This document shows positions 22,704 through 64,000 of a stretch of 64,000 nt of DNA, one piece after another. The notes beneath the pieces were generated by a model that searched no databases, was not told the DNA's origin, and saw only the letters and a list, made by a program, of their open reading frames with translations. This DNA comes from Nitrospinia bacterium (GTDB lineage: Bacteria; Nitrospinota; Nitrospinia; Nitrospinales; JAJDAT01), in NCBI GenBank assembly GCA_029261715.1, contig JAJDAT010000035.1, positions 351 through 64,350 of the forward strand, in the 5' to 3' direction. Each line of letters opens with the position of its first letter. Within the stretch, counting starts at the first letter, position 1. Both the position numbers and the translations under genes were made by a program.

Positions 22704-22750
22704 TCCCGTCAATGTTTCCTACCGTTTCCACTTTAATTAAAGTTTAATAC

Positions 22751-43271: not shown

Positions 43272-44318
43272 CTAACGAATTTTGATCCGTTTGCCTTCAT
43301 TTTGCGCGGATTTGTATATAGATGTGATGACCTGAAGGGCTCTAAGTCCATCCAAACCGGAAGAAGAACTTGGCGTTTGTTTTCTCATACGTTGAACTAA
43401 ATCACGAGCTCCTCCAGTAAAAGGACTCTCGTAATTTTTAACTTTAGGGAAGGGGACTTTTTCAAGTTCTTGAAAACCAGTAAACCGTCCGCTTTTTTTT
43501 GTTACGTATAATTCTCGTCCTGAGTTTCCTATTAAGATTCTGCCTTCAGATCCCTGAATATCTAATTCAAAGTTGAAGTATTTTCTAGCTCCTCCGCCTT
43601 CGATAAAACCGATAGCTCCATTTTTAAAACGGATTGTTGCGGCGGCAGTTTCCTCAATATATTTTTTTCCGTTGGATCTTATTTCAAAACCGGAAACCCA
43701 ATCGGGAGGACCGGCGAAAAAAAGCATTAAATCGGTTAAGTGAGTGCCATCGTGAAACAGAGGGCCTCCGCCATGCTCTGAAGCCAATAGTTTTGGAGGA
43801 ATCCATGATAATGAGTTTCCAACAATGGTGCGAAGTTCTCCGATTTTACCGCTTTCTATTAATTTTTTGGCCTGACGATAATAAGAATCCCAACGTCGCT
43901 CGTGGTTAATCACCAAAGGGATATTTTTATTTTCGCATATTCGAACCATCGCTTTTGCCTGTAAAGTGTCTATGGCGATAGGTTTTTCGCAAAAAATTCC
44001 TTTAACCCCTAAACGAGCCGATGCTTTTACCATTTCGGAGTGCAAATGGGTCCAAGTGGCAATAGAAACTATATCTGGATGAATCTTGCGAATCATTTGC
44101 TTATAGTCCGAAAATAACTCGCCAACCTGCCAGCGTTTGCCAAACTTTTTTAGTCTATCTGGATTTGTATCGCAACCCGCCACAATTTTCGTTTGGGACA
44201 GCGCGTCAAAAGCTCCCGCATGTGTGCATGGTTTGCCGCGTAGGGGATCTTCTTCCAAAAGGCTTCCGATTCTTCCACATCCGATGATAGCGACTGTTAA
44301 TGGTTTCATTACGTTCAA
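43272..44318 (-). CDS. Gfo/Idh/MocA family oxidoreductase
   Basis: N-terminal Rossmann motif VAIIGCGRIG and a length typical of the family. Confidence 0.85.
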   Translation of the reverse strand: MNVMKPLTVAIIGCGRIGSLLEEDPLRGKPCTHAGAFDALSQTKIVAGCDTNPDRLKKFGKRWQVGELFSDYKQMIRKIHPDIVSIATWTHLHSEMVKASARLGVKGIFCEKPIAIDTLQAKAMVRICENKNIPLVINHERRWDSYYRQAKKLIESGKIGELRTIVGNSLSWIPPKLLASEHGGGPLFHDGTHLTDLMLFFAGPPDWVSGFEIRSNGKKYIEETAAATIRFKNGAIGFIEGGGARKYFNFELDIQGSEGRILIGNSGRELYVTKKSGRFTGFQELEKVPFPKVKNYESPFTGGARDLVQRMRKQTPSSSSGLDGLRALQVITSIYKSAQNEGKRIKIR

Positions 44319-44361
44319 TACCCTGATTATTTTTAAGATTACATTGCCCGAAAGAACTTGT

Positions 44362-44385
44362 CGGCCCCCCCAGGGTGGGGGGCCG
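44362..44385. other. G/C-only 9-bp hairpin (CGGCCCCCC-cagggt-GGGGGGCCG)
   Basis: Perfect complementarity read directly from the sequence. Neither strand has a U-tract after it. Confidence 0.6.
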
Positions 44386-44562
44386 TCAAATCAAGATTCG
44401 GACAGACTACACCTCGCTTACCCCGGACAAGGGTCGTAACGAGATTTTTGCGTTTTTAAAAAAATCTTCAGGCGGGGGGGGGTGAGCCTTTCCCGCAAAC
44501 GCTCTGAAATCAACAAATTTATAATTTATTTTATACATTAATGACCTCGGATTTTAAGTATT

Positions 44563-45423
44563 TTAAATTTGGTTGTCTAAAAGTTGAAGTACAGATTGAG
44601 GATTCAAATTAGCTTGTCCTATCATAGCTGTAGATGCCTGTACTTGAATTTGATTTTTAGTCAAATTAGCAAAACTTTCTCCGAGGTCGGCGTCAGACAA
44701 GATAGAGTCAGCTCTGGTGTTTTCTTCAACAGAACGATCTAAATTCGATACTGTGCTCGCTAATCTTTCGGCGGCTACAGAGACTCGACTTCTAGTTTCA
44801 ATAACATCATCTAGCAAAATTTCAATCGCTTCGCCAGCGGCAAGCGCTGATTCTTGAGTATTGACAGAAAGTTGATCAAGGCCTGTAGCGGCAGATCTCA
44901 AGTCAGTGACATCTAATATATCGTTGAGGTTGAACCTGTTAGAAGCGCCTCCGTCTAATCCAGTTTGGATGATGTAAGGATCGCTAGCTCCCCTTGATAA
45001 GGAACCGTCTAACAATTTTTGTCCATTGAATTCTGTCGTGTTTGCTATTCGATCCAATTCTTCTCTGAGTTGATTGAATTCCAACTGAACGCTTTCTCGT
45101 TGGGTGTCGTTGATAGTTCCGGATGCCGATTGTTGCGATAACTCTCGAAGTCGAATCAAAATGGAAGAAACTTCTCCAATTGAGCCTTCTACGGTATTTA
45201 CTAGGGCGATGGCATCGCTAGTATTTCTTGAAGCTTGGCGTAAAACAAGGTTGTCGGATCGTAGCGTTTGAGAGATAGAAAAGGACGCGGAATCGTCGCC
45301 AGCTTGTTGGAACCTTTGTCCTGAAGCAACTTGCTTGATAGAATTTTCTAGCCTATCATTATTTGCTGTTAGGTTTCTTTGCGCGTTTTGAGAAACGAGA
45401 TTGGTAAAAATCTGTAATGCCAT
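44563..45423 (-). CDS. fliC: Flagellin, divergent paralogue (286 aa)
   Basis: MALQIFTNLVSQNAQRNL... N-terminus and ...QANLNPQSVLQLL C-terminus. No sigma-28 motif in the 103-nt gap to the upstream flagellin. Confidence 0.9.
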   Translation of the reverse strand: MALQIFTNLVSQNAQRNLTANNDRLENSIKQVASGQRFQQAGDDSASFSISQTLRSDNLVLRQASRNTSDAIALVNTVEGSIGEVSSILIRLRELSQQSASGTINDTQRESVQLEFNQLREELDRIANTTEFNGQKLLDGSLSRGASDPYIIQTGLDGGASNRFNLNDILDVTDLRSAATGLDQLSVNTQESALAAGEAIEILLDDVIETRSRVSVAAERLASTVSNLDRSVEENTRADSILSDADLGESFANLTKNQIQVQASTAMIGQANLNPQSVLQLLDNQI

Positions 45424-45465
45424 TTCAATTTTCCTCCGTGAAAAGTGATTTTGTCATACTGTTAT

Positions 45466-45479
45466 TAGCTTCCTTGCTA
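45466..45479 (-). promoter_or_regulatory. Leader hairpin with AAGGAA loop (CsrA-type site candidate)
   Basis: On the mRNA it reads UAGC-AAGGAA-GCUA. It lies about 30 nt upstream of the SD CGGAGGA (45432-45438). Confidence 0.4.
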
Positions 45480-45526
45480 AAACAATGGCAATTTCAATAA
45501 ATATTTTATTCAGTTTTATTCTAGAA

Positions 45527-46384
45527 TTACTGTAGTAATTGCAATACTGACTGCGGAATCAAGTTGGCCTGTCCTACCATAGCGGTAGAAGACTGAACCA
45601 AGATTTGGTTTCGAGTTAACAAAGCGACTTCTTCTGCGATATCTGCATCTCGAATAGCTGATTCTGCAGATGTTAGGTTCTCAATAGAAATCGATATGTT
45701 GGATATTGCTCTTACTAGCCGGTTTTGCACGGCGCCGACTTTACCACGGCCCTGCGTAACGACTGTTATTGCGGAATTCATTACATCCAAAGCTGTCAAC
45801 GCGGCGTCGGAGGCAGTAACGCTTAAAACGTCTACTCCTAAACCTGATGAAGTAATTGAACCAAGGTCGATTTGTTGGTTTAAATTAATTCGACTGTCTG
45901 CTGAGGAATCAATTCCGATTTGGATCAATATATGTTGATTGGATGAAATCGAAGATGAAAGCGATCCATCAATCAAACGTTGACCATTAAAGGAAGTCGT
46001 TTGCGCAATACGATCAATCTCGTTTCTTAACGCGGTGAATTCTAATTGGATAGTTTGACGTTCGGTAGAACCAACAGTTCCGGTAGCAGCTTGGGAAGCT
46101 AGCTCTCTCAATCTGATGAGAATCCCGGCTTGTTCGTTGAGCGCTCCTTCCGTTACGTTAATGAGCGCGATTCCGTCGTTTCCGTTTCGAACAGCTTGCC
46201 TTAGAGCTCGGATATCGGATCGTAATGATTCCGAAATTGCCAACCCTGCGGCGTCATCTGCTCCCCGGTTTACCCGGATTCCGGAAGCGATTCTTTCAAC
46301 TGAAGAAGCTAACCGGTCGTTGTTGATCCCCAAAATACGCTGAGCGTTCAGCGAGGGGATATTGTTAAAAATTCTTACTGGCAT
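45527..46384 (-). CDS. fliC: Flagellin (285 aa)
   Basis: MPVRIFNNIPSLNAQR...GADDAAGLAISE... and ...QANLIPQSVLQLLQ. Confidence 0.95.
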   Translation of the reverse strand: MPVRIFNNIPSLNAQRILGINNDRLASSVERIASGIRVNRGADDAAGLAISESLRSDIRALRQAVRNGNDGIALINVTEGALNEQAGILIRLRELASQAATGTVGSTERQTIQLEFTALRNEIDRIAQTTSFNGQRLIDGSLSSSISSNQHILIQIGIDSSADSRINLNQQIDLGSITSSGLGVDVLSVTASDAALTALDVMNSAITVVTQGRGKVGAVQNRLVRAISNISISIENLTSAESAIRDADIAEEVALLTRNQILVQSSTAMVGQANLIPQSVLQLLQ

Positions 46385-46422
46385 TTTAAAAATCCTCCGT
46401 GATTTTTAATTGTTTTAATTTC

Positions 46423-46434
46423 GGCATCCTTGCC
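46423..46434 (-). promoter_or_regulatory. Leader hairpin GGCA-AGGA-UGCC (CsrA-type site candidate)
   Basis: The mRNA reads ...UUGGCAAGGAUGCC..., close to the CsrA consensus CAAGGAUG. It is nested in a TGTTTT/AAAACA outer stem (46411-40). The SD is CGGAGGA (46393-46399). Confidence 0.45.
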
Positions 46435-46554
46435 AAAACAGTAAAAAAAAAGCTTTAATTCGATGTTACGTTTTAGTCATGCTTGTTTCCTTTATATATA
46501 GAAATTAAGTAGTTAAATTCCGAATATGATAGGTATAAGTGCGTCATAGATTTC

Positions 46555-46582
46555 ATAACGGATTTTGCATTAAAATACTTTA
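46555..46582 (-). promoter_or_regulatory. Sigma-28-like promoter (weaker): TAAAGTAT-N12-TCCGTTAT
   Basis: Reverse complement of 46555-46582. It sits 171 nt upstream of the ATG, the same distance as the strong motif before flagellin 48960-49817. Confidence 0.45.
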
Positions 46583-46680
46583 TGGTTTTTTTCGCAGGGG
46601 CAAACGACCCTGCTTAAAGGGGGAGAAAAAGAAGTGGCGAGAAACTGGCTTTTGAGGTTTTGGGAAGTGTAGAATCGAAA

Positions 46681-46730
46681 CCAGCCGCCGGGTTTGACCT
46701 TATTTGAAAGGCTTTGTCAAACCCGGCTGG
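46681..46730 (-). terminator. Long GC-rich hairpin downstream of flagellin 46860-47717
   Basis: CCAG(CCG)CCGGGTTTGAC ... GTCAAACCCGGCTGG forms a 15-bp stem with a 3-nt bulge. Both flanks are T-rich. Confidence 0.4.
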
Positions 46731-46809
46731 CTTTTATTAGGAATCGATCATTGCCAGCTGTTTCCTTTAATTTAGGAAACTCATACGCTTGAAAATAATT
46801 TCAAGTTTA

Positions 46810-46843
46810 AGGAAGAATAATAAAAAACTTTATTATTCTTCCT
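46810..46843 (-). terminator. Perfect 15-bp A/T-rich hairpin 17 nt after the flagellin stop
   Basis: AGGAAGAATAATAAA-aaac-TTTATTATTCTTCCT. Confidence 0.35.
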
Positions 46844-46859
46844 AAGCTTGTTTTTGAAA

Positions 46860-47717
46860 TTATCCTAAGAGCTGTAATACTGATTGCGGGATTAAATTCG
46901 CCTGACCAACCATTGCCGTAGAAGCCTGTACCAGAATTTGGTTTCTGGTGAGTAACGCAACTTCTTCAGCGATGTCGGCGTCTCGGATAGCAGATTCCGC
47001 AGCTTGTAAGTTCTCAGTACTAACCGATATATTCGCGATTGCTCTTACGAGCCGGTTTTGTACGGCACCCACCTTACCACGGCCCTGGGTAACAACCGTT
47101 AAAGCAGCGTTGATCGAGTCGAGAGCGGTCAGCGCTCCTGCGGCTGATGTAACGCTTAGCGTGTCGATGCCAAGAGAAGATACTGTTACGGCGGTCAAAT
47201 CTATTTGTTGATTCAGGTTGATTCGACTATCAGCAGATGAATCCAATCCAATTTGGATCAGAATTTGATTGCTGGATGTTACGGTAGAAGATAGTGAACC
47301 GTCAATCAATCGCTGTCCGTTAAACTCAGTGGTGTTTGCGATACGGTCAATTTCGTTTGAAAGCGCCGTGAATTCGATTTGAATTGTTTGACGTTCTGTG
47401 GATCCAACAGTACCGGTAGAAGCTTGAGAAGAAAGTTCTCTTAGCCGAATCAAAATACCGGCTTGCTCATTCAAGGCTCCCTCCGTAACGTTGATCAATG
47501 CAATTCCGTCATTTCCGTTTCTAACAGCTTGTCTTAAGGCTCGAATGTCAGAACGTAATGATTCCGAAATAGCTAGACCAGCGGCGTCGTCGGCGCCTCT
47601 ATTGATTCTAATACCGGATGCAATTCTTTCTACTGATTGGGCGAGTCTATCGTTGTTGTTACCCAAGATTCTCTGGGCATTAAGCGAGGGAATGTTATTA
47701 AAGATTCGAACTGGCAT
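46860..47717 (-). CDS. fliC: Flagellin (285 aa)
   Basis: Canonical flagellin N- and C-termini. The first 72 aa are identical to those of the 48960-49817 copy. Confidence 0.95.
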   Translation of the reverse strand: MPVRIFNNIPSLNAQRILGNNNDRLAQSVERIASGIRINRGADDAAGLAISESLRSDIRALRQAVRNGNDGIALINVTEGALNEQAGILIRLRELSSQASTGTVGSTERQTIQIEFTALSNEIDRIANTTEFNGQRLIDGSLSSTVTSSNQILIQIGLDSSADSRINLNQQIDLTAVTVSSLGIDTLSVTSAAGALTALDSINAALTVVTQGRGKVGAVQNRLVRAIANISVSTENLQAAESAIRDADIAEEVALLTRNQILVQASTAMVGQANLIPQSVLQLLG

Positions 47718-47750
47718 GGTGATTCCTCCTTGAGTCGTGAATAACTAATG

Positions 47751-47778
47751 CTTGTTTTAACCTCCTTGCTAAAACAAG
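47751..47778 (-). promoter_or_regulatory. Leader hairpin with GCAAGGAGGU loop (CsrA-type site candidate)
   Basis: 9-bp stem CTTGTTTTA/TAAAACAAG with loop GCAAGGAGGU on the mRNA. A second CAAGGAGGA forms the SD (47724-47732). Confidence 0.5.
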
Positions 47779-47976
47779 TAACCAGGATGCTTCAAATGTA
47801 AAACTACAAATTTTTTTCTAGATAATTCTCCAAGAATTTCTTCGCCAACCAGGAAAAGGCGAAAAAAAATTGTTTTTTAGATCAAAAATCTTAAATTATT
47901 CAGTAATTTTTGCGCCAACCAGGTAAGGAGCTCAAATTACTTTCTAAATTAAAAGACTTTTTGCGTCTTGGAAGCT

Positions 47977-48003
47977 ATATCGGAATTTGGAGAATTTACT
48001 TTA
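47977..48003 (-). promoter_or_regulatory. Sigma-28 promoter: TAAAGTAA-N11-TCCGATAT
   Basis: Reverse complement of 47977-48003; about 260 nt upstream of flagellin ATG 47717. Confidence 0.65.
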
Positions 48004-48112
48004 GCGAGAAGAAAGAGTAGGGGGAGTTCTCCCCTGGGCGGAGCGGATAAAAAAACGTGGAAAACGTTAAAAATAAAGAATTTTACGCTAGATTAAATTT
48101 AATAAAAAAAAA

Positions 48113-48871
48113 TTATAAGATTGATGAATCAGATCCAAATTTAAGCAATTGGACGACTTCTTTTCGAGCTTGCAATGATATATCGAGTTTAGAATCTTGT
48201 CTATTTTGCATCAAATTCTTCCAATAGATTTGTGTCCAAAGGAATTTATCGCTTATAGGACTTAAATTTGCTCGAAATTGCTTTAAAACGTTAGTTTCTT
48301 CGGAAATCTCCTCAATTATTTTGGAAGTTGGACTGAAACTGCTGAAAATGAATCGAGAAAAATTTCTTCCACAATAGCGTTCTGCTAATAATGGATTCAG
48401 AGATAATCCAGCTTTTATATATGATTCTTTTAAATCGCCTATTATGTTTGGCGGTAAAACTACCTCAAGAGACGTTTTATCGAAAATAAACTTTTCTTTT
48501 TCAACTAAAAGGCTAGAGTTAACATCCGTTTGCCTTATCAGTCTTTGGATAGCATTTTGTAAGTGAAGCTTATCTGTTTCATCCATATTAGGGGTTTTAT
48601 GAATGAGTAAAAGTTGACCGAGCAATTGAAGGCGCTTTGATTGTTTAGATAAAATTGCCTCACATTCTTTAATTTCTCTTAGATAGATCTGAGTCGAGCA
48701 TAATTTTTGATCTATAGAAAGATCTTTTATATCCGTTTTCTCGTTTTGCAATTCGCGAAACAAGTTCCCCATCGTTTTGGAGCGAGCGTTGGCGCTCGCT
48801 CTTTGTTTCTTTTCCGGAGAAAAGGGTCTTATAGAACGATCTTCGATTTTTATATGTAATGTTTTACCCAT
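48113..48871 (-). CDS. Unknown protein embedded in the flagellin array; possible highly diverged flagellin-derived protein (252 aa)
   Basis: Intact ORF with balanced composition, 88 nt downstream of a flagellin gene. By-eye collinear matches to the flagellin D1 helix (TDKLHLQNAIQRLIRQTD vs TERQTIQLEFDSLRTEID) and to the C-terminal ..VVQLL. It lacks the flagellin N-terminus. Confidence 0.55.
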   Translation of the reverse strand: MGKTLHIKIEDRSIRPFSPEKKQRASANARSKTMGNLFRELQNEKTDIKDLSIDQKLCSTQIYLREIKECEAILSKQSKRLQLLGQLLLIHKTPNMDETDKLHLQNAIQRLIRQTDVNSSLLVEKEKFIFDKTSLEVVLPPNIIGDLKESYIKAGLSLNPLLAERYCGRNFSRFIFSSFSPTSKIIEEISEETNVLKQFRANLSPISDKFLWTQIYWKNLMQNRQDSKLDISLQARKEVVQLLKFGSDSSIL

Positions 48872-48959
48872 ACCTAGTCCGCCCTTTTTAGGAAATAATT
48901 TCCAACAAAAGTTATTCTGCTTCCACTGAGGATAAATTTCCTCAATGGAATTGAATAAA

Positions 48960-49817
48960 TTATCCCAATAATTGCAAAACAGACTGTGGTATTAAGTTTG
49001 CCTGTCCAACCATAGAAGTAGAGGCCGCAACTAGAATTTGGTTTCGCGTTAGCAAAGCGACTTCTTCAGCAATATCGGCGTCTCTAATCGATGATTCGGC
49101 GGCTTGTAAATTTTCGGTTGAAACCGAAAGGTTTGAAATCGCGCGAACTAAACGGTTTTGTACGGCGCCGACTTTTCCTCGGGCTTGGGTTACGGCGGTG
49201 ATAGCGGAGCTTATTGAATCCAAAGCGGTTAAAGCTCCAGCGGCTGATGTTACGCTTAACGACTCTACGCCAAGTCCGGATGTTGTTACCGCAGATAGAT
49301 CAATTTGTTGATTTAAATTAATTCGACTATCTGTGCTGGAATCCAATCCAATTTGAACCAAAATGTGATTTGTGGAAGTAACCGTTGACGCCAAAGATCC
49401 ATCGATTAATTTAGTTCCGTTGAACTCTGTTGTGTTGGCAATACGATCAATTTCGGTTCGTAGGGAATCGAACTCTAATTGAATGGTTTGCCGTTCTGTC
49501 GAGCCGACAGTACCTGTAGATGCTTGCGACGATAGTTCCCTTAAGCGAATAAGAATAGACGCTTGTTCGTTTAGCGCTCCTTCGGCGACATTAATTAAAG
49601 AAATTCCATCGTTACCATTTCGTACGGCTTGACGAAGAGCTCGAATGTCAGAACGTAATGATTCTGAAATTGCTAGTCCAGCGGCGTCGTCTGCGCCTCT
49701 ATTAATTCTAATACCAGAAGCTATTCTTTCAACCGATTGTGCTAACCGGTCGTTGTTGTTTCCCAAGATTCTTTGAGCGTTCAAAGATGGGATGTTGTTG
49801 AAGATTCGAACAGGCAT
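48960..49817 (-). CDS. fliC: Flagellin (285 aa)
   Basis: Canonical flagellin N- and C-termini. Confidence 0.95.
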   Translation of the reverse strand: MPVRIFNNIPSLNAQRILGNNNDRLAQSVERIASGIRINRGADDAAGLAISESLRSDIRALRQAVRNGNDGISLINVAEGALNEQASILIRLRELSSQASTGTVGSTERQTIQLEFDSLRTEIDRIANTTEFNGTKLIDGSLASTVTSTNHILVQIGLDSSTDSRINLNQQIDLSAVTTSGLGVESLSVTSAAGALTALDSISSAITAVTQARGKVGAVQNRLVRAISNLSVSTENLQAAESSIRDADIAEEVALLTRNQILVAASTSMVGQANLIPQSVLQLLG

Positions 49818-49851
49818 GACTTTTTCCTCCTCCTAAGGATGTTTTTGTTCG

Positions 49852-49872
49852 CGATGATTGTCCTTATCATCG
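49852..49872 (-). promoter_or_regulatory. Leader hairpin with AAGGACA loop (CsrA-type site candidate)
   Basis: 7-bp stem CGATGAT/ATCATCG with loop AAGGACA on the mRNA. The SD is AGGAGGAGG (49826-49834). Confidence 0.5.
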
Positions 49873-49987
49873 ATTTTTTAGCGCGCTTAAAAAAAACACT
49901 AATGGAATTTAATTTAAATTCCGTAAAGCCAGATAAGCGTTAATTATGACCGCCTTGCTACTTTGGACGGTGATGCGCTCAACAAGG

Positions 49988-50014
49988 TTATCGGAGGAAT
50001 AGTTGATAACTTTA
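49988..50014 (-). promoter_or_regulatory. Sigma-28 promoter, consensus: TAAAGTTA-N11-TCCGATAA
   Basis: Reverse complement of 49988-50014; 171 nt upstream of flagellin ATG 49817. Confidence 0.8.
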
Positions 50015-50192
50015 GTTTGGAAAGTTTTTTGAAAAGGAAGATGAGTCTAGTTTTTCTTCTGGGTTGGTTTTAGAAAGCCAATAAAAATTATTTGAGGTAG
50101 CTCTAAAGAGCTTTGTTTGAGGGAACTTCGAAGATTGGCTAAGAACTATTCTGAAAAATATTTAGAGTTAAAAAAACGGAAAATATTTTTAA

Positions 50193-50231
50193 TTTTTTTT
50201 TGGAGCGGGGGTGAACCCGCTCCAAAAAAAA
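50193..50231. repeat. 39-nt near-perfect palindrome T9-GGAGCGGG-ggtgaa-CCCGCTCC-A8
   Basis: Read directly from the sequence, immediately after the stop of flagellin 50239-51096. On both strands the T-tract precedes the stem and the A-tract follows it. Confidence 0.7.
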
Positions 50232-50238
50232 GTTCGAA

Positions 50239-51096
50239 TTAGCCCAATAATTGTAAAACCGACTGCGGAAGTAGGTTAGCTTGACCCGCAACTGCGGTAG
50301 AAGAAGCAACCAAGATTTGGTTTCGCGTCAAATTTGCCACTTCTTCAGCAATATCAGCATCCCGGATAGCAGATTCTGCGGCTTGTAAATTTTCCGTTGT
50401 GGTGGCTAAGTTGTTAATAGCTCTTACCAACCTGTTTTGTACCGCACCCACCTTACCCCGAGCCTGAGTAACTAAAGATATAGCCGAGTTTACAGAGTCT
50501 AATGCGGTCAAAGCTCCTGCCGCCGACGTAACGGAGAGAGATTCAATGCTTAAACTGGTTGAAGAAATTGCTTGTAGGCCAATTGTAGTGTTGAAATTGA
50601 TTCGACTGTTACTCGATGCATCCAATCCTATTTGAACAATAAGTTGAGAATCCGTTGTTACTGTCGAAGCAAGCGATCCATCTAAAAGCCGGGTTCCGTT
50701 AAACTCGGATGTGTTTGAGATTCTATCGATTTCGTTTCTTAGTGAATCGAATTCAATTTGAATCGTTTGTCTTTCCGTGGAACCAACCGTTCCGGTTGAA
50801 GCTTGAGACGCCAATTCTCTTAAACGAATAAGAATGGAAGATTGCTCGTTTAAGGAACCCTCTGTCGTATTTAAAAGAGAAATACCGTCATTCGCATTTC
50901 TACTAGCTTGTCGTAACGCTCGGACATCAGATCTTAATGATTCTGAAATAGCCAATCCAGCGGCATCATCCGCGGCCCGATTGATTCTAACCCCAGATGC
51001 GATTCTCTCGATGGACTGTGCTAGACGATCATTGTTGTTACCCAAAATTCTTTGCGCGTTTAATGAGGGGATGTTGTTATTAATTCGGACCGGCAT
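50239..51096 (-). CDS. fliC: Flagellin (285 aa)
   Basis: MPVRINNNIPSLNAQR... and ...QANLLPQSVLQLLG. Confidence 0.95.
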   Translation of the reverse strand: MPVRINNNIPSLNAQRILGNNNDRLAQSIERIASGVRINRAADDAAGLAISESLRSDVRALRQASRNANDGISLLNTTEGSLNEQSSILIRLRELASQASTGTVGSTERQTIQIEFDSLRNEIDRISNTSEFNGTRLLDGSLASTVTTDSQLIVQIGLDASSNSRINFNTTIGLQAISSTSLSIESLSVTSAAGALTALDSVNSAISLVTQARGKVGAVQNRLVRAINNLATTTENLQAAESAIRDADIAEEVANLTRNQILVASSTAVAGQANLLPQSVLQLLG

Positions 51097-51176
51097 GGTT
51101 TCCTCCGCCTAATAGTTAGATGGTTTAATTATTTAAAAAGACCAGGTTTTATTAAAAAAAAGCCTAATGGCTATTA

Positions 51177-51650
51177 TCAAATTTTCCGATAAAGCAGATA
51201 GGGGGTAAATACTCCAAAGTTTTGGAGAAATAAAATAAACCCTTCCACTTCGGTATTTCGGCAAAAAAACGTAAACTCTAAATAAGTTTTTCTGAAAAAA
51301 AGCGCTTTTTTATAACTAGAAGCGATTTTTTCTTTAATTTGTAAAAAAACGCTTGAGACTATTGTCATAAAAGCCGTTATGAACGATGAGGGATACTGTG
51401 CTTTATAGATCCAGCGAAACCCAAAAAGCTTCTCCTCAACGGGAATATCGGAAGAAATATCAAGTACTTTAAGATTAAATTTTTGAAGCGAGTTTTTGGT
51501 ATCTATTGAAATTAACTTTAAGAAATTAAACAAAAATTCCGTTAAGACCGATGCCCCAAGCTGTATTTTTCCTTTATAATTCAAAAAGCTAAAGGAAGCC
51601 TTATCGGGTTTTTCGGATAAAAAATTAAAATGTATTAGTTTAATTTTCAT
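51177..51650 (-). CDS. Unknown F/K/L-rich protein (157 aa) between a sigma-28 promoter and a flagellin gene
   Basis: A 157-codon open frame is improbable by chance in such AT-rich sequence. However, there is no convincing SD, the composition is skewed and no family is recognised. Confidence 0.4.
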   Translation of the reverse strand: MKIKLIHFNFLSEKPDKASFSFLNYKGKIQLGASVLTEFLFNFLKLISIDTKNSLQKFNLKVLDISSDIPVEEKLFGFRWIYKAQYPSSFITAFMTIVSSVFLQIKEKIASSYKKALFFRKTYLEFTFFCRNTEVEGFILFLQNFGVFTPYLLYRKI

Positions 51651-51777
51651 TTTTTAAATATTTCTTGGATTTTTGATTTAAAAGCTTCAAGGTACTTTAT
51701 TTATTTTCCGTTAAGTTCGATGAACCAAAGACCTTTCTTTCGTAAATTTTATTAAGCCGAAATATGTCCTATCCTGG

Positions 51778-51804
51778 TTATCGGAAAAAAAGTTAATAAC
51801 TTTA
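51778..51804 (-). promoter_or_regulatory. Sigma-28 promoter, consensus: TAAAGTTA-N11-TCCGATAA
   Basis: Reverse complement of 51778-51804; 128 nt upstream of the ORF 51177-51650 ATG and 682 nt upstream of flagellin ATG 51096. Confidence 0.65.
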
Positions 51805-52106
51805 GTTTCGAAGTTCTTTTTTTTCAAAATTTAAAAAAAACCTTTCTATAAAGGAACTCAGGTTTTTTTCCGATAAACTCGATGAGGTGTTATAGAATCT
51901 TTTTTCAAACATTAAAGTTCTATGAAGCCATATCTTATTTTTCGGGAAAAATCTTGAGGGCTTTAGAAAAAAATTCATCTTTAATGAATCCTAAAAATAA
52001 CTTTTTAAATTTCGCTTATATAAATAAGGTAAAATCCCGTAAAAAGAGATAAGCAGCCTATGGCCTTCCGAATGGAAAATGTTGGCTGCAATTAACCTTA
52101 ACTTTG

Positions 52107-52133
52107 TTATCGGGAAAAATAATTAGAACTTTA
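52107..52133 (-). promoter_or_regulatory. Orphan sigma-28-like motif: TAAAGTTC-N11-CCCGATAA
   Basis: Reverse complement of 52107-52133. No credible ORF lies within the next 300 nt on the minus strand. Confidence 0.5.
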
Positions 52134-52159
52134 GCCCGTTTGCAAAAAAGGCAATAAAA

Positions 52160-53077
52160 TTGAATAAAGCAAAGAAAATAAAAAAGGGAGACTTGATTGG
52201 AATTGTCTCTCCGGCGGGGCCTACGGATTCTGGTGAATTGCAGAATGGAATAAGCGTTCTGAAGAAAATGGGGTTCCGTAGTGTTTTAGGAAAGAATGCT
52301 TTATTACGAGATGGGTTTCTAGCGGGTTCGGATGAGGAAAGAGCCAGAGATTTCATGGATATGGTTAAAAACCCTGACGTAGCGGCTATTTTATGCGCGC
52401 GTGGAGGCTATGGGATTAATCGAATCCTTTCGTATTTAGATTTTGACCTAATTAAAAAGGTACGCAAACCTATTATTGGCTCAAGCGATATAACGATCCT
52501 ATTAAATTATATAAATAGTAGATGCTCTCTAATTTCTTTCCACGGTCCAATGGCAGCAGGAAGTTTTGGCCGAACGCCAATGACGAAATCGCGTAAACCC
52601 TTTTGCCAAGCGCTCATGGGAGATATGGATATGTATAGTTACTCGAAACGCAGCGCTTGGACTATAAATTCGGGGCAAGGGGAGGGGCGATTGGCGGGAG
52701 GATGCTTGACTCTCATGATTCGTTCTCTTGGCACACCCTTCGAGATTAAAACGCGAAACCGGATTTTAATTATTGAAGACGTTAACGAAAGACCTTACAA
52801 AATCGATGGAATGTTATGGCAATTAAAAGAAGCTGGGAAATTTAAGGGGATTCGTGGAATAGTTTTTGGAGAAATGATTAATTGTCAGCCAAACAAGAAT
52901 GAAACGTATACATTAAGGAAGACGATATCGGAATTCTTCAAAACTGACGATTTTCCTATCTTGATGAATTGTCCCGTTGGGCATGGAAAAGAAATGTGGA
53001 CTTTGCCGCTCGGGGTTCCGGCAATTTTGGATTCGGAAGCGAAAAGCTTAACAATAAAAGAAAATGGAGCGGTCTAA
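52160..53077 (+). CDS. ldcA: LD-carboxypeptidase (peptidase S66, LdcA-like)
   Basis: GIVSPAGP, the nucleophile region [27 protein letters not shown], and a C-terminal GHG. TTG start. Confidence 0.85.
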
Positions 53078-59615: not shown

Positions 59616-60251
59616 TTAGATATTTGGCTGAGGTGTTGTTCTCAAATAAGGTTTGATTACCTTATGGCCTTTTGGAAATTTCTCAGGAATATCTTCGGTT
59701 TTAATTGCAGGAACAACAACGCAATCTTCTCCCCATTTCCAATCTGCAGGCGTAGCGACTTGGTGGTTCGCCGTCAATTGCAGCGAATCAATCACTCGTA
59801 AAAGCTCGTCAAAATTTCTTCCAGTTGATGCAGGATAGGTCAGCATCAATTTTACGGTTTTATCTGGACCAATAATGAAAATGGAACGAACTGTTAAATT
59901 GTTTAGAGCCTTTGGGTGGATCATGTCGTAAAGTTCGGCGACTTTTTTCTCGGGGTCGGCGATAATAGGATAACCAACGGTACAATTTTGAGTTTCGTTG
60001 ATATCTTTGACCCAACCTTTATGAGACTCGACATCGTCGACGCTCAATCCGACCACTTTTACTCCTCTTTTATCAAATTCTGGCTTCATGTTAGCTAATC
60101 GGCCTAATTCAGTTGTACACACCGGAGTGTAATCTTTTGGATGAGAAAATAATACAACCCAACTTCCATCGATCCAGTTATGAAAATCAATGCTTCCTTC
60201 TGTGGAATCCGCAGTAAAATTTGGCGCGGTATCTCCTAACCTAATAGCCAT
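59616..60251 (-). CDS. 1-Cys peroxiredoxin (Prx6 type)
   Basis: FSHPKDYTPVCTTE peroxidatic-Cys motif; 211 aa. Confidence 0.9.
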   Translation of the reverse strand: MAIRLGDTAPNFTADSTEGSIDFHNWIDGSWVVLFSHPKDYTPVCTTELGRLANMKPEFDKRGVKVVGLSVDDVESHKGWVKDINETQNCTVGYPIIADPEKKVAELYDMIHPKALNNLTVRSIFIIGPDKTVKLMLTYPASTGRNFDELLRVIDSLQLTANHQVATPADWKWGEDCVVVPAIKTEDIPEKFPKGHKVIKPYLRTTPQPNI

Positions 60252-60609
60252 GATTAAAACTCCTTTTCTAATTTCTTTTTACGTTGATATATTATTTTAA
60301 AAATAAAACGATATTTATTAAGTCCAAGAAGCCAAGGCGAAAAAGCCTAAGTAAATTAATATCGCGTGGGTTGCGAGCATACCGAGCGTACTTGGGATGG
60401 GCCTATTTTATCATAGAATTTACAAGCTTTGCCTAAATTAACGACTCAAGATTGATCTTTTAAAGAGGTAGGAATGTCAATGCCATTAATAAGCGAAAAA
60501 AGACATGCTTAGGAAGAATGGCGAAATCGAGCGGATTGAAAGAGGGAAAAGTGTAAAAGCTTAAATTCGCTAAAATTACGCCATTTTTAACTTAGAGTAG
60601 TAGAGAAAT

Positions 60610-61719
60610 TTATAGGCGCATAGGCATTACGAGACTAAGGAATCCTGGGTCTTTTTCTGTCGTAATTAAACAGGAATGATCTTTATCTTTCAGCTTAAGA
60701 ACCACATTTTCATATTCGATAACGTTTAAGATATCTAAAACATAACGACCGTTTAAGCCTATAGCGACATCGTCGCCTTTATAGTCAATGGCAATCTCTT
60801 CTTTTGCCGCGCCTTGGTCTGCTGTATCAGCGTTCAATGATAATTGGCTTGATTTCACTTCTAGACGAACCATTTTAGAATGCTCATCTGCAAGTAGAAC
60901 TACCCGTTTCATTGCGTGACTTAAATCCTCTTTATTTATTGAAATTAGGAGTTCGTTTTCTTTTGGAATGACTTGCCTGTAATTAGGGAACTTTCCATCC
61001 ACCGCACGTGAAACAATCGCCTGCTTTCCTTGAGTAAAAGCTAAAAAGTTGTCTTTTATTGAAAAAGAAATAGTTTGTTCTTCATCTTCAATAAATTTTG
61101 CCAATTCATTCACTAGTTTTCTTGGTAATAAATGTTCGGACTTTTCTTCTTCGCTATTTGTTCCTTCAGGCAAGGGTCTTTGAATCGATACAAGACGATG
61201 GCCGTCGGTACCCACCATAGAACAATTTCCTTTTTCTAATTCAAGCAATAATCCGCTAATTCCTTTCCTCGTTTCGTCGGTAGATACGGCAAAAGATGTC
61301 TTGCGAATCATTTCTTTTAAAGCGCCTGCGTTAAAATCGATGAGGCTATCTTCTCCATATTCAGGGAAAACTGGAAATTCTTCGGCGGCTAATCCTGGCA
61401 GTCGAAAAACAGACTTTTGGCATTTAATGGTGACCCAGTTATTTTCTTCTTGGGTGATGTGAATTTCACTATCGGGAAGTTCTCTTACAATGTCGTGTAG
61501 TTTTTTAGCGTTTAAGACCGCTTGACCTTCGGCAACTACATTCGCTGAATAATATCCGCGAAAAGCGACTTCCAGATCCGTCGCTTGAATAAAAACACCA
61601 TCCTGGTCTGTTGAAATTAATAAATAAGATAAAATGGGCATAGCCCCTTTAGCTTCTACAACTCCTTGTACTTTTTGGACTCCAGCCAATAAATTGGCTT
61701 TGCCGATTCTAATTTCCAT
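60610..61719 (-). CDS. dnaN: DNA polymerase III beta sliding clamp
   Basis: 369 aa of three-domain length. N-terminus MEIRIGKANLL...VQKVQGVV and C-terminus ...LVMPMRL. Confidence 0.9.
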   Translation of the reverse strand: MEIRIGKANLLAGVQKVQGVVEAKGAMPILSYLLISTDQDGVFIQATDLEVAFRGYYSANVVAEGQAVLNAKKLHDIVRELPDSEIHITQEENNWVTIKCQKSVFRLPGLAAEEFPVFPEYGEDSLIDFNAGALKEMIRKTSFAVSTDETRKGISGLLLELEKGNCSMVGTDGHRLVSIQRPLPEGTNSEEEKSEHLLPRKLVNELAKFIEDEEQTISFSIKDNFLAFTQGKQAIVSRAVDGKFPNYRQVIPKENELLISINKEDLSHAMKRVVLLADEHSKMVRLEVKSSQLSLNADTADQGAAKEEIAIDYKGDDVAIGLNGRYVLDILNVIEYENVVLKLKDKDHSCLITTEKDPGFLSLVMPMRL

Positions 61720-61977
61720 GCGGAATACGCTCCTAAGAAGGCTTTTCTATCAAGGTTTTTATTAGCACAAATAATCAAAACCTGTCAAAATTTTTATCCC
61801 GAAAACGGCATAAAAGTTGTATTTAATAAATAGTGGGAGAATCTTGTTTTATTCGTTGAAATAAAGTGAAAAATATGGAGTTTTGCTTGCAATTCTCAAA
61901 AATAAGATATATCTTTAAAAAACAATAGGTTTTGTGTTAATTTCCAGCTTCAAGCTTGGCAATGGAGATTTTTCCTC

Positions 61978-64000
61978 GTGCACAATATATATAAAACCAA
62001 TAGAACATTTTCTCAAGGTTATGTTGAAAGTATTCGGCGTAGAATTGAAGAAATAATACAGCCGGCAGATTTTGCCCCCTCCCAAGAAATAGACCCCCAA
62101 AAATTTTACTTAGAATTTAAAAATAGAATTCTAAATATCATCAATGTGGAGGTAGAGAGTTTAAAAAATGAGTTGGCTAAGTCCAATAACAGCCATCTTA
62201 TTTTACTAAAATTCACCGCCTTAGTTGACGTCTCATTAAACGCCGCTTTTAAATCTGCCGTGTGGCTAGCTAATCGTCTGAATGAAACGGACATTGCTCT
62301 AAAAGATATACCTATATCATTTGCCGCTTGTGGAGGTTATGGGCGCGAAGAAATGTATTTTCGCTCCGACGTGGATATTTTGATAATTTCCCGATCTACT
62401 TCGGATGAAAAGATTAATCAATTCGTTCCTAAAGTTCTACAAAATTTTGAATATCTTTTTATTCACCAAGAAATTTTTAGAACGAAAATTCATATTATTC
62501 AAAATGAAGAAGGCGCTGATTTTGAATTTGATTTTTCGAAACCCTCTTGGCTTTGCTCAATTATAGATTGTCGACTTGTTTGTGGTAACTTTTTAGCGTT
62601 TACCGAGTTTAAAAGCGCTGTGAAAACCGCTGTATTGCTCAATAAAAATCCTATATTGGATTATTGCAGGTCTCACGAAGGTTATTTTGAGGTCCAGAAC
62701 ACGGTTTTTTCTCAAGAGCCAGACGTTAAAGTCGAACTTACACGGTTATATTGGGCTCTTTTTCTTGAAAAGACGTTAAATAATTTAGAAAAAGTTAATC
62801 AGTTTGAATTGCTCCAAGAGTTATATGATAACGGAAAACTAGGAGAAACTGCTTATAAAAATATGCAAAATGGCCTTAATTTTTTGGCTAAAACACGACT
62901 ATTTCTTCATTCCCTTCAACAAAGCGCGTTAAGAGACGTACTGAGCTTTGAAGTGAGAGAGCAGGTTGCAAAATCCATGGGGATGGAGTTATTTCCTTTT
63001 TACAGGAGCTATTTTTATGATGCCGCATATCCTCTAAAAAAGCATAGCCGTAATTTATTTTCTGAAGCTATAAAGTTTGACCCCAAAAAAATTAAAAGGT
63101 TGAATGAAAACTTAGGAATTAATGCCGAAGGTCAAATTATTTTCACAAGAAATGGCGAAACAAAGTTAGCGGACAACCCCAATCTGGTTTTTCAAATTTT
63201 AAGTTATGTCGCTCGTGATAATTATAAAATTTCCTACCCTGTTATTCGAGCAATTGAGCAAAATACCGATCAGTTTTCACCTCTTTTTTATAAAGGTAAG
63301 ATAAAGAAACAAGCGCAAGAAGGCTTTAAAAACGTTATTCGTGGGAAGTATTTTTCTAAAGCTTTACGGTTATTCCATGAATTTGGTTTGTTACAAAACT
63401 TCTTTATTCCAGAGTTTAAAGCTCTATGCGGCCTTCTTCAAGATATCTATGTTCATAAATTCCCAACAGATATTCATGTCCTGGCGGCGTTAGATCAATT
63501 AAACGGATTAGAGTTTGGCAACGACGGCGATCCTTTCTTGTCTGATCTTTATCATTCCGTAAAAGACAAACAGACTCTTAGATTATCGGTTTTACTACAC
63601 GATATTGGTAAAGGAGCAAAAGAACCTGGGCAAAATGAGGAAATTGTGGGCGCTCGACTCATTCCGGGAATTTTAAATAATCTAGGATATTGGAATGTAA
63701 AAGCGATAGAAAATGTTGCGTTTTTAGTCGAAAGACATCTAACGATGAGGGATTTGATGTTTTTGGATCCTGAAGATGACGATACATACGAAATGGTTTG
63801 GGATTTAGTGGGTCACGATAAAGAGCGTCTGAAAATGCTGATTTTGTTAACTTTTTCGGACCGTGGTGGGACAAAGATGAAAATGTCGGCGTCTCAAATT
63901 GATCAGCTGAAAAACTTTTACCAATTTACTTTGTATCACAAGAAAAAGCGCGCTGTTTCCAATGCGGTCAAATTAGATTTTATGAAATTCATCAGTTTGC
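61978..64000 (+). CDS. glnD: GlnD-like [protein-PII] uridylyltransferase (NTase + HD domains), 3'-truncated by window edge; not in ORF track
   Basis: I translated the frame by hand from 61921 and it stays open to nt 63999. The only start after the stop at 61903-61905 is GTG 61978, following GGAGA. Motifs: NTase AACGGYGREEMYFRSDVDILIIS, then FPTDIHV and LLLHDIGKG of the HD domain. Confidence 0.75.
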   Translation, partial: MHNIYKTNRTFSQGYVESIRRRIEEIIQPADFAPSQEIDPQKFYLEFKNRILNIINVEVESLKNELAKSNNSHLILLKFTALVDVSLNAAFKSAVWLANRLNETDIALKDIPISFAACGGYGREEMYFRSDVDILIISRSTSDEKINQFVPKVLQNFEYLFIHQEIFRTKIHIIQNEEGADFEFDFSKPSWLCSIIDCRLVCGNFLAFTEFKSAVKTAVLLNKNPILDYCRSHEGYFEVQNTVFSQEPDVKVELTRLYWALFLEKTLNNLEKVNQFELLQELYDNGKLGETAYKNMQNGLNFLAKTRLFLHSLQQSALRDVLSFEVREQVAKSMGMELFPFYRSYFYDAAYPLKKHSRNLFSEAIKFDPKKIKRLNENLGINAEGQIIFTRNGETKLADNPNLVFQILSYVARDNYKISYPVIRAIEQNTDQFSPLFYKGKIKKQAQEGFKNVIRGKYFSKALRLFHEFGLLQNFFIPEFKALCGLLQDIYVHKFPTDIHVLAALDQLNGLEFGNDGDPFLSDLYHSVKDKQTLRLSVLLHDIGKGAKEPGQNEEIVGARLIPGILNNLGYWNVKAIENVAFLVERHLTMRDLMFLDPEDDDTYEMVWDLVGHDKERLKMLILLTFSDRGGTKMKMSASQIDQLKNFYQFTLYHKKKRAVSNAVKLDFMKFISL

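Follow-up and report, generated by a model that had tools for sequence, protein, structure and literature searches.

Paired GGA-loop hairpins in flagellin leaders of a Nitrospinia bacterium suggest two-site repression by a CsrA-type protein

The question raised by this locus is whether a set of neighbouring flagellin genes in a Nitrospinia bacterium (Nitrospinota, Nitrospinales) is controlled at translation by a protein of the CsrA type. The whole stretch of DNA analysed, 64 kb long and called the window here, carries five flagellin genes in tandem, all of them on the minus strand; each ORF was found by Pfam to contain Flagellin_N and Flagellin_C (Table 1). Sigma-28-type promoter motifs were located by regex upstream of fla2, fla3 and fla4, and a weaker one, conserved in the related leader L060, upstream of fla5; among Nitrospinota flagellin leaders the motif was present in 125 of 173, compared with about 21 in shuffles, and flgM was found in the phylum. 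A clear sigma-28 motif was not found by the same kind of search upstream of fla1, and the gap between fla2 and fla1 is 103 nt; therefore, fla1 may be co-transcribed with fla2 by read-through. Taking the putative transcription starts from the predicted promoter motifs, the leaders of fla2 to fla4 would be about 160–250 nt long, with that of fla3, set at about 250 nt from the promoter position, containing a recent duplication of 70 nt.

Table 1. Flagellin genes, leader hairpins (HP1, upstream; HP2, Shine-Dalgarno), promoter motifs and other ORFs
Feature	Coordinates	Strand	Description
fla1 flagellin	44563..45423	-	286 aa; divergent N-terminus MALQIFTN; Pfam Flagellin_N + Flagellin_C
fla1 HP2	45425..45448	-	core UUUUC-ACGGAG-GAAAA at 45429-45444; in MFE
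fla1 HP1	45458..45486	-	core UUAGC-AAGGAA-GCUAA at 45465-45480; in MFE; GGA P(unpaired) 1.00
fla2 flagellin	45527..46384	-	285 aa; Pfam
fla2 HP2	46386..46409	-	UUAAAAAUC-ACGGAG-GAUUUUUAA; in MFE; GGA P(unpaired) 1.00
fla2 HP1	46418..46439	-	GUUUUGGC-AAGGAU-GCCGAAAU; in MFE
fla2 sigma-28-type promoter motif	46555..46582	-	TAAAGTAT-N12-TCCGTTAT; regex match
fla3 flagellin	46860..47717	-	285 aa; Pfam
fla3 HP2, imperfect	47721..47736	-	GACUC-AAGGAG-GAAUC; one C/A mismatch
fla3 HP1	47751..47778	-	CUUGUUUUAGC-AAGGAG-GUUAAAACAAG; 11 bp; in MFE; GGA P(unpaired) 0.99
fla3 sigma-28-type promoter motif	47977..48003	-	TAAAGTAA-N11-TCCGATAT; perfect match to TAAAG-N13-16-CCGATA
fla4 flagellin	48960..49817	-	285 aa; Pfam
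fla4 HP2	49825..49839	-	UCCUU-AGGAG-GAGGA within UAGGAGGAGGA; in MFE; first GGA P(unpaired) 0.91
fla4 HP1	49852..49872	-	CGAUGAU-AAGGACA-AUCAUCG; 7 bp, 7-nt loop; in MFE; GGA P(unpaired) 0.99
fla4 sigma-28-type promoter motif	49988..50014	-	TAAAGTTA-N11-TCCGATAA; perfect match
fla5 flagellin	50239..51096	-	285 aa; Pfam
fla5 weaker sigma-28-like motif	51255..51280	-	TAGAGTTT-N10-GCCGAAAT; regex, 2 mismatches
ORFs without Pfam match, in or adjoining the cluster	48113-48871 and 51177-51650		

An earlier note on this DNA had proposed that four of the five leaders present GGA in the loop of a short hairpin upstream of the Shine-Dalgarno (SD) sequence. All four hairpins (HP1) were recovered at the coordinates given there, on the minus strand and with their GGA at about −45 to −50. 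They form both in the MFE folds of leaders of 106–119 nt and when the predicted 5′ UTRs are folded whole; in the latter the GGA of each was unpaired with a probability of 0.99–1.00. The stems had been understated, however, and are longer than described, reaching 8–9 bp in fla2 and, in fla1, 5 bp in the core and 11 bp when a bulge is included. The HP1 of fla4 is kept only in the four closest relatives, L060 showing a single change from U-A to U-G, and is broken in L003; the fold of the fla4 leader gave z = −3.5.

The same note had reported GGAGGA within the SD, and this is true of all five genes; absent from it was the finding that in fla1, fla2 and fla4 the SD itself lies in a hairpin loop (HP2). 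The first SD GGA of fla1 was unpaired with a probability of 0.97–0.99. In fla3 the corresponding hairpin is imperfect, with two non-standard pairs in the covariance-model alignment, and its SD GGA was only about 0.45–0.78 unpaired in the whole-UTR fold. With the exception of this fla3 SD, unpaired probabilities were at least 0.9 for the GGA of HP1 and for the first GGA of the SD, and these were the only unpaired GGAs in the hairpin-bearing UTRs, the others being paired. The leaders of fla1 to fla4 each have two GGA sites, one of which overlaps the SD. The distance from GGA to GGA is 30–36 nt in the window and 30–55 nt, most commonly 34–41, in 106 Nitrospinota leaders. Mercante and colleagues in 2009 reportedly found that one CsrA dimer can bridge sites about 10 to 63 nt apart, and the spacing in the window is compatible with such bridging.

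For the fifth leader, the weak candidate hairpin put forward in the earlier note did not hold up, as its GGA at 51187 was base-paired in the stem in the folds. The fla5 SD (GGCGGAGGA, 51098-51108) is without a GGA-loop hairpin, and the predicted UTR fold contained no exposed GGA, all five GGAs being mostly paired. Four of the five paralogues therefore carry the hairpin pair, and fla5 retains only the SD site.

Conservation was assessed on 106 distinct flagellin leaders of Nitrospinota, drawn from about 60 genomes and aligned by sequence only with MAFFT; both hairpins were conserved across them. Paired cells amounted to 87.4%, compared with 73.6% in shuffles, and none of 500 shuffles reached the observed value; sliding the partners lowered pairing to 38–55%. 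Changes on both sides of a pair occurred in 229 cells, compared with 79 in shuffles, and were seen in 11 of the 14 pairs, indicating that the stems have been kept by compensatory changes and bearing out the selection on the hairpins that had been suggested. The inner three pairs of HP1 were paired in 100% of the leaders, with one position being AU in 52 and GC in 42, and swaps in HP2 were AU 64 / UA 26 and UA 55 / AU 25. In orthologues of the fla2 HP1, pairing was 94%, and 6 of the 8 pairs had changed on both sides. The loops read G(105)-C/U-A(97)-N-G-G-A-N-G(98)-C(100) in HP1 and U(106)-C(105)-A(106)-N-G-G-A-G-G-A(106) in HP2, the variable positions being the N's of the ANGGA motif. As had also been suggested, the motif is kept while the leaders drift, each GGA letter occurring in at least 103 of the 106 leaders against a mean column identity of 43%.

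The hairpins are also specific to flagellin leaders. A scan of the window for hairpins of 5 bp or more whose 6-nt loop reads A-N-G-G-A-N gave 11, compared with 3.6 ± 1.8 in shuffles; 5 of the 11 fall in the fla1 to fla3 leaders, including fla1 HP1 and fla2 HP2. A GGA-loop hairpin at −80 to −20 was present in 71% of 178 Nitrospinota leaders, compared with 19.6% (maximum 27.5%) after shuffling. A covariance model (CM R1) was built from both hairpins, with the fla1 to fla3 leaders among its seed. Within the window it matched only these three seed members (E = 1e-9 for fla1 at 45423-45487, 5e-11 for fla2 and 8e-11 for fla3), the next match having E of about 1, and the fla4 HP1 was not found with it. 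In 330 kb of other loci, all CM R1 matches with E < 0.06 ended at a flagellin ATG, and these included the non-seed leaders L048, L049, L034, L055 and L076. No curated Rfam model matched the window at gathering score, nor was there a relevant Rfam match at E ≤ 1 in 44000-52500. Outside the phylum, in small samples of flagellin leaders, ANGGAN-loop hairpins were present in 12 of 16 from Bdellovibrionota/Oligoflexia and in none of 7 from Myxococcota or of 4 from one gammaproteobacterium. The hairpin pair occurs across Nitrospinota and in Bdellovibrionota. In line with the CsrA reading, a KEGG-based table (PMC7366521) scores both CsrA and FliW as 1 in 2 of 4 Bdellovibrio strains and in Nitrospira defluvii, Thermodesulfovibrio and Desulfovibrio, FliW as 0 in Gammaproteobacteria, and both as 0 in Myxococcus.

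The leaders of fla1 to fla4 probably mediate two-site repression by a CsrA-type dimer, of the kind known from B. subtilis hag and C. jejuni flaA. The RNA-level features of the CsrA reading put forward earlier (paired GGA-loop sites, ANGGA core and covariation) stand, whereas the site in the fifth leader does not. The protein concerned would be CsrA (PF02599), its binding would repress flagellin translation, and FliW (PF02623) would be the antagonist. In the proposed mechanism, fla1 to fla4 would each be translated from a long leader, fla1 by read-through from fla2. A CsrA-family dimer would bridge the loops of HP1 and HP2 of a single mRNA, 30–36 nt apart, both A-N-G-G-A-N loops being closed by a C-G pair, and the subunit on HP2 would keep the 30S subunit off the SD. 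FliW, freed from exported flagellin, would then bind CsrA and lift the repression, as in B. subtilis and C. jejuni, and fla5, without the sites, would escape CsrA control.

The genes for these proteins were searched for with phmmer/hmmsearch with --max on the window and, in the profile run, also on the loci of related genomes. Neither the 64-kb window nor the loci of related genomes, about 80 in number (72 around flagellin genes, ±6 kb, and others around FlgM, ±10 kb), yielded a csrA. The screen of the window, flagellin loci and FlgM loci for fliW, weaker owing to approximate FliW probes, was also negative, as were Pfam scans for FliW of the ORFs adjoining the cluster; the 44 kb upstream and the 13 kb downstream of the cluster contain no csrA- or fliW-like gene. 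Searches for CsrA homologues gave no Nitrospinota-labelled protein among the best 120 matches listed. Four of the matches were inspected, and an aspartokinase-csrA neighbourhood, with alaS too in 3 of them, was seen in all 4, an arrangement typical of Gammaproteobacteria. A literature search returned no paper linking Nitrospinota with CsrA or FliW. FlbT and FlaF, which control flagellin mRNA in Alphaproteobacteria, gave no Pfam match in ORFs in or around the cluster, and this Nitrospinota locus does not fit control of that type.

Several other explanations of the hairpins were considered. That the likeness among the leaders reflects inheritance by duplication or chance, with no selection on the hairpins, is very improbable. 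The genes are tandem paralogues, the HP1 sequences of fla1, fla2 and fla3 are plainly homologous (UUUURGCAAGGA), and the fla3 leader contains a recent duplication; nevertheless, the both-sided changes across about 60 genomes, the loss of pairing with slid partners, the nearly invariant loops in drifting leaders and the concentration of the window-wide hairpin excess in flagellin leaders all argue against it. An unlikely but less remote alternative is that the hairpins act in cis only, by SD presentation, protection of the long leader from RNases or as a ribosome standby site, with no sequence-specific protein involved; the flagellin mRNA would thereby be stable and strongly translated. Flagellins are abundant proteins, the SD loop is accessible in fla1, fla2 and fla4, the very stable HP1 stems of 8–11 bp look closer to a structural element than to the usual CsrA ligands, and no csrA was found in the window or loci searched. 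However, HP1, which has no SD role, keeps A-N-G-G-A-N, with GGA in 103–105 of 106 leaders, while its N's and stems vary, and a loop pattern shared by two hairpins points to one sequence-specific reader of two sites. Because the N preceding GGA is C or U in 30 of the 106 leaders, anti-SD pairing beyond GGA is not conserved, and such pairing would not account for the invariant A before that N. Nor is HP1 a 5′-terminal stabiliser, as about 100 nt or more separate it from the predicted 5′ end.

A trans-acting reader other than CsrA, such as a functional analogue of FlbT/FlaF, a small RNA with UCC loops or the product of a 252-aa ORF that lies within the cluster, was judged quite improbable. The failure to find csrA and fliW in the window and loci searched would fit such a reader, as would the presence of the two ORFs without Pfam match. 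Yet the 252-aa ORF is lineage-specific, restricted to the three closest relatives, whereas the hairpin pair is Nitrospinota-wide and also found in Bdellovibrionota, and the 157-aa ORF has the appearance of a low-complexity artefact and overlaps the promoter motif of fla5. Moreover, the conserved positions of the loop consensus all agree with the known CsrA core, and we know of no reader of GGA loops outside the CsrA/Rsm family.

The hairpin layout is the one known for flagellin mRNAs repressed by CsrA and is here observed in a new phylum, Nitrospinota. Both loops contain the ANGGA core, which is also that of the CsrA SELEX consensus and is found in the flaA loops of C. jejuni. The SELEX consensus, RUACARGGAUGU, folds into a 6-nt loop with AC/GU as the closing pairs (PMC7652899), and its A-R-G-G-A-U loop is matched by fla2 HP1, GGC-AAGGAU-GCC. 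Most SELEX ligands have no more than 4 contiguous pairs, compared with stems of 5–11 bp here, and the same review states that very stable structure might hinder CsrA binding (PMC7652899); the HP1 stems of 8–11 bp are far more stable than most of these ligands. SELEX ligands are artificial, and CsrB and RsmZ are sponge RNAs with many copies of the site, unlike the two sites per mRNA, one with an SD role, observed here.

The layout resembles that of C. jejuni flaA, in which CsrA binds SL1 and SL2 of the 5′ UTR (Dugar et al. 2016, PMC4894983). Both loops carry ANGGA, SL2 is on the RBS and compensatory changes occur; C. jejuni has no Csr sRNAs (PMC4894983). In both cases two ANGGA-loop hairpins precede the flagellin gene, with the second covering the RBS. 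The flaA leader, 45 nt long, begins close to SL1, whereas those of Nitrospinota are predicted to be about 150–250 nt with the hairpins at the 3′ end; the stems are longer in Nitrospinota, and four paralogues here carry the pair while the fifth lacks it. CsrA binding has been demonstrated for flaA and is predicted for the Nitrospinota sites.

In B. subtilis, hag is dependent on sigma-28 (SigD), and its SD, UUCAGGGAGGAA, resembles the fla1-type HP2, CUUUUC-AGGGAG-GAAAAG. The fliW and csrA genes lie immediately upstream of hag, unlike the present cluster, near which neither was found, and hag is a single gene whereas multiple flagellin paralogues are present here. As in the leaders of fla1 to fla4, the hag leader has two sites, of which one overlaps the SD: CsrA binds hag at BS1 and BS2, the bound protein blocks the ribosome, and a Hag-FliW-CsrA partner switch operates (Yakhnin 2007; Mukherjee 2011; PMC7652899). 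Borrelia burgdorferi flaB, which is repressed by CsrA according to a citation of Sze et al. 2011 in PMC4894983, is a further flagellin mRNA targeted by CsrA in a non-proteobacterial phylum. Borrelia is described in PMC11607428 as being without sigma-28, whereas Nitrospinota have sigma-28-type flagellin promoter motifs and flgM.

The flagellin genes fla1 to fla5 lie in tandem in the window (see the table) and are isolated from other flagellar genes, with an ABC transporter and an oxidoreductase downstream and histidine-biosynthesis genes upstream. A spirochaete FlaB cluster, suggested by gene size, was rejected because a genome scan with one genome per species pointed to the phylum Nitrospinota; the loci closest to fla3 (96–98% amino-acid identity) were from Nitrospinales/Nitrospinota MAGs. 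A search for an identical copy of the window flagellin retrieved no record. The 252-aa ORF between fla3 and fla4 has no Pfam match and was found only in the three closest relatives; other Nitrospinota instead have a FlaG gene of 118 aa within their flagellin clusters. This ORF and another of 157 aa were rejected as FliW, since neither has a Pfam match and their sequences are unlike FliW. In many Nitrospinota, flgM, encoding the anti-sigma-28 factor, directly follows a separate flagellin paralog. At several loci from other genomes (L055, positions 6001-7179, L073, L074, and L076–L078), this gene pair is accompanied by a leucine-rich-repeat protein on the opposite strand.

Elsewhere in the window, Pfam searches identified two adjacent leucine-rich-repeat proteins, and 13 ORFs match, by ORF size only, a nuoA-N NADH dehydrogenase operon. 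dnaA is missing from its usual position. The approximately 1.9 kb directly upstream of dnaN contains no ORF longer than 62 aa, only fragments without significant Pfam match, and may represent an origin-like spacer or the remains of a gene.

Features of the window, with sigma-28-type promoter motifs of the flagellin genes
Feature	Coordinates	Strand	Description	Promoter motif	Motif position
fla1	44563-45423	minus	Flagellin_N + Flagellin_C		
fla2	45527-46384	minus	Flagellin_N + Flagellin_C	TAAAGTAT-N12-TCCGTTAT	46582
fla3	46860-47717	minus	Flagellin_N + Flagellin_C	TAAAGTAA-N11-TCCGATAT	48003
fla4	48960-49817	minus	Flagellin_N + Flagellin_C	TAAAGTTA-N11-TCCGATAA	50014
fla5	50239-51096	minus	Flagellin_N + Flagellin_C	TAGAGTTT-N10-GCCGAAAT (weaker)	51280
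fla3 5' UTR duplication, downstream copy	47824-47856		hairpin in mRNA		
fla3 5' UTR duplication, upstream copy	47894-47926		similar hairpin		
252-aa ORF	48113-48871	minus	no Pfam match		
Peroxiredoxin gene	59616-60251				
Peroxiredoxin SD hairpin	60253-60272	minus	SD in loop		
dnaN	60610-61719	minus			
Region upstream of dnaN	61780-63650		no ORF >62 aa		
Leucine-rich-repeat proteins	2142-4302	minus	two, adjacent		
ORFs of nuoA-N-like size	9789-23449	plus	13 ORFs		

The 5′ ends of the fla2 to fla5 mRNAs were predicted from sigma-28-type promoter motifs, which put them near 46547, 47969, 49980, and 51247, respectively. Of 173 Nitrospinota flagellin genes, 125 were preceded by the motif TAAAG-N13-16-CCGATA (at most 1 mismatch allowed per box), compared with approximately 21 in shuffles. 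The motif mostly ended 140–260 nt before the ATG, implying long leaders; together with flgM in the phylum, the motifs therefore mark the flagellins as late genes of the flagellar system that have long regulatory leaders. fla1 starts 103 nt after fla2 with no clear promoter or terminator between them, and may be co-transcribed with fla2 while retaining its own pair of sites. The 5′ UTR of fla3 is approximately 90 nt longer than the others, and a 70-nt stretch of it is duplicated in tandem (79% identity). In the mRNA, the downstream copy folds as CGCC-UUUUCCUGGUU-GGCG and the upstream copy as a similar hairpin with one mismatch.

An earlier note had proposed that fla1 to fla4 each carry a hairpin presenting GGA in its loop upstream of the Shine-Dalgarno sequence (SD). 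All four hairpins were found on the mRNA strand where the note had placed them, and RNA folding of each leader included them in the minimum-free-energy structure. When whole predicted UTRs including the first 20 coding bases were folded, the GGA of this upstream hairpin (HP1) was unpaired with a probability of 0.99–1.00 in fla1 to fla4, and the first GGA of the SD with a probability of 0.9–1.0 in fla1, fla2, and fla4; in fla3, the latter value was about 0.45. All remaining GGAs of these UTRs were base-paired. The SD itself is also in a hairpin loop, which the note had missed (UUAAAAAUC-ACGGAG-GAUUUUUAA in fla2 and UUUUC-ACGGAG-GAAAA in fla1); thus, the leaders have two GGA-loop hairpins, HP1 and the SD-containing HP2, spaced 30–36 nt apart in fla1 to fla4. 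The candidate HP1 of fla4, with a 7-nt loop (AAGGACA), is retained only in the four closest relatives, is broken in the related locus L003, and is supported mainly by its predicted fold. HP1 was rejected as a leader terminator because it is not followed by a U-run on the mRNA strand; a terminator scan gave only a weak flag for HP1 of fla3 and, for fla4, a flag on the opposite strand alone.

Counting both strands, the window has 11 hairpins combining a stem of at least 5 bp with an A-N-G-G-A-N loop of 6 nt, compared with 3.6 ± 1.8 in composition-preserving shuffles, and 5 of the 11 were HP1 or HP2 of fla1 to fla3. Among 178 Nitrospinota flagellin leaders, a hairpin with GGA in its loop was present between −80 and −20 in 71%, compared with 19.6% (maximum, 27.5%) in shuffles. 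Because choosing the best hairpin in each sequence would create covariation, alignments were made by MAFFT on sequence alone. In one ortholog group, pairing in the HP1 stem reached 94%, with changes on both sides in 6 of its 8 pairs. The main alignment consisted of 106 distinct leaders from three paralog groups; 87.4% of its cells paired, compared with 73.6% in shuffles (0 of 500 reached this value) and 38–55% when the partners were slid by 1–3 columns, and cells changed on both sides numbered 229, compared with 79 in shuffles. The inner three pairs of HP1 were 100% paired, one position being AU 52/GC 42, and HP2 pairs swapped AU 64/UA 26 and UA 55/AU 25. These compensatory changes contradict simple inheritance from duplication as the source of the resemblance among leaders. 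As the note had claimed, the motif is kept while the surrounding leaders differ: column identity averaged 43% in this alignment, with almost invariant loops.

In the 106 leaders, HP1 reads G(105)-C/U-A(97)-N-G(103)-G(103)-A(105)-N-G(98)-C(100) and HP2 reads U(106)-C(105)-A(106)-N-G-G-A-G-G(103)-A(106), the two free loop positions being the N's of an ANGGA-type core. The SELEX consensus of CsrA is RUACARGGAUGU, in which AC/GU pairing mostly closes a 6-nt loop (PMC7652899). Pairing with the 16S anti-SD would not account for an invariant A two bases before GGA beside a freely varying base, and HP1 has no SD role. The loop grammar common to both hairpins fits a symmetric reader that binds RNA at two faces, as the CsrA dimer does.

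A covariance model of the HP1/HP2 pair, built from a 107-leader alignment, matched only the leaders of fla1, fla2, and fla3 in the window (E = 1e-9 to 5e-11), all three of which are seed members; the next window match, with filters off, had E of about 1, and the fla4 leader was not matched. In 330 kb of other loci, all matches with E < 0.06 ended at a flagellin start codon, and non-seed leaders were matched at L048, L049, L034, L055, and L076. No Rfam family matches the element. The leader of the flgM-linked flagellin paralog matches the model more weakly (L055, L073, L074, and L076; E = 0.003–0.05). One of the few A-N-G-G-A-N loops of the window outside the flagellin leaders, AUUAGAA-AAGGAG-UUUUAAU, holds the SD of a peroxiredoxin gene and could be a further target or chance.

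For the fifth leader, the weak candidate hairpin of the earlier note did not hold, its GGA at 51187 being base-paired in the stem, and the predicted UTR fold of fla5 has no exposed GGA upstream of the SD. In most other Nitrospinota (L004–L043), the gene that opens the flagellin cluster, corresponding to the fla5 position, shares the leader UCCAACUCAUGGUGGAGGAUUAGG without HP1, and one flagellin paralog per genome consistently lacks the upstream site. At L048–L053, the paralog starting MAIRIFTNLTSL lacks GGA hairpins and its SD (AAUGGUGA) is poor; the gene directly after it has a complete HP1/HP2 pair. In other Nitrospinota (L004, L006–L008, L010, L011, L015, L025, L030, and others), fla3-type leaders have a third GGA hairpin, AAGC-UUGGAG-GCUU, at about −75 to −25. 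This hairpin and HP1 lie together within an outer helix (GGGUUA/UAACCC), which brings the GGA loops of such a fla3-type leader to three; the extra hairpin has been lost in the window's lineage.

Searches by phmmer and profiles of six-frame translations detected no csrA or fliW in the window or 72 flagellin loci (the FliW probes were approximate sequences, a weaker screen than for CsrA), and none was found in the FlgM loci. Pfam showed neither gene among the ORFs flanking the cluster, those at either end of the window, or those of related loci. A flgM-flgK-flgL-fliW-csrA cluster was sought through FlgM homologs and gene context and was not found. Searches with B. subtilis CsrA and a 10-sequence CsrA profile gave no Nitrospinota-labelled protein among the best 120 matches listed; four CsrA homologs inspected had an aspartokinase-csrA context (4 of 4), with alaS also in 3 of 4. 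Literature searches, including supplements, yielded no paper linking Nitrospinota with CsrA or FliW. Since fliW is not adjacent to csrA in Epsilonproteobacteria (PMC4894983), absence of these genes beside the flagellin genes is not informative. In a small sample, 12 of 16 flagellin leaders from Bdellovibrionota/Oligoflexia had ANGGAN-loop hairpins, compared with 0 of 7 from Myxococcota and 0 of 4 from one gammaproteobacterium. A KEGG-based table, which has no Nitrospinae row, lists CsrA and FliW for 2 of 4 Bdellovibrio strains, Nitrospira, Thermodesulfovibrio, Leptospirillum, and Desulfovibrio, with FliW absent in Gammaproteobacteria and both absent in Myxococcus (PMC7366521 supplement). This phyletic contrast lends indirect support to the CsrA reading.

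The interpretation of these leaders as putative CsrA targets is supported at the RNA level. Recognition by a trans-acting reader other than CsrA appears quite improbable: the only cluster-specific ORF is confined to three close relatives, and we know of no other GGA-loop reader. More speculatively, Nitrospinota might lack CsrA and FliW and have the pair read by an unrelated, undescribed RNA-binding factor, as convergent or replacement control, or, in a milder form, CsrA might be present with four repressible genes and a constitutive fla5 priming filament assembly; we give this very little credence. The hairpins might instead act purely in cis, in SD presentation, stability, or as a standby site, and, compared with a typical SELEX ligand, the unusually long HP1 stems are more suggestive of such a structural element (PMC7652899); however, retention of the HP1 GGA while HP1 stems and N positions drift is left unexplained, and we consider this role unlikely.

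With strong comparative support, the RNA half of the CsrA-flagellin circuit appears in Nitrospinota and Bdellovibrionota. Flagellin control is considered the ancestral function of CsrA, a widespread regulator, and, to our knowledge, has been demonstrated in just a few phyla; Nitrospinota are major marine nitrite oxidizers. The leader type is extended here to this phylum; the mechanism is not new and is unlikely to surprise a specialist. The 106-leader alignment and covariance model could provide the seed for an RNA family absent from Rfam, and the model could be applied to predict which flagellin paralogs in a genome are translationally controlled. The split between four genes with sites and one without offers a testable idea for the ordering of multi-flagellin filaments.

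In the CsrA reading, a dimer would bridge HP1 and HP2 and occlude the SD of fla1 to fla4, FliW would be the antagonist of CsrA, and fla5 would lie outside the circuit. Bridging is proposed because of the anatomy: the C. jejuni flaA leader has the same anatomy as the Nitrospinota HP1/HP2 leaders, which also match the B. subtilis hag leader. In hag, one of the two CsrA sites lies on the SD, bound CsrA blocks ribosome access, and the repression is relieved through partner switching by FliW (PMC7652899); by analogy, we infer that CsrA binding, repression, and the FliW step would operate on the Nitrospinota leaders as well.
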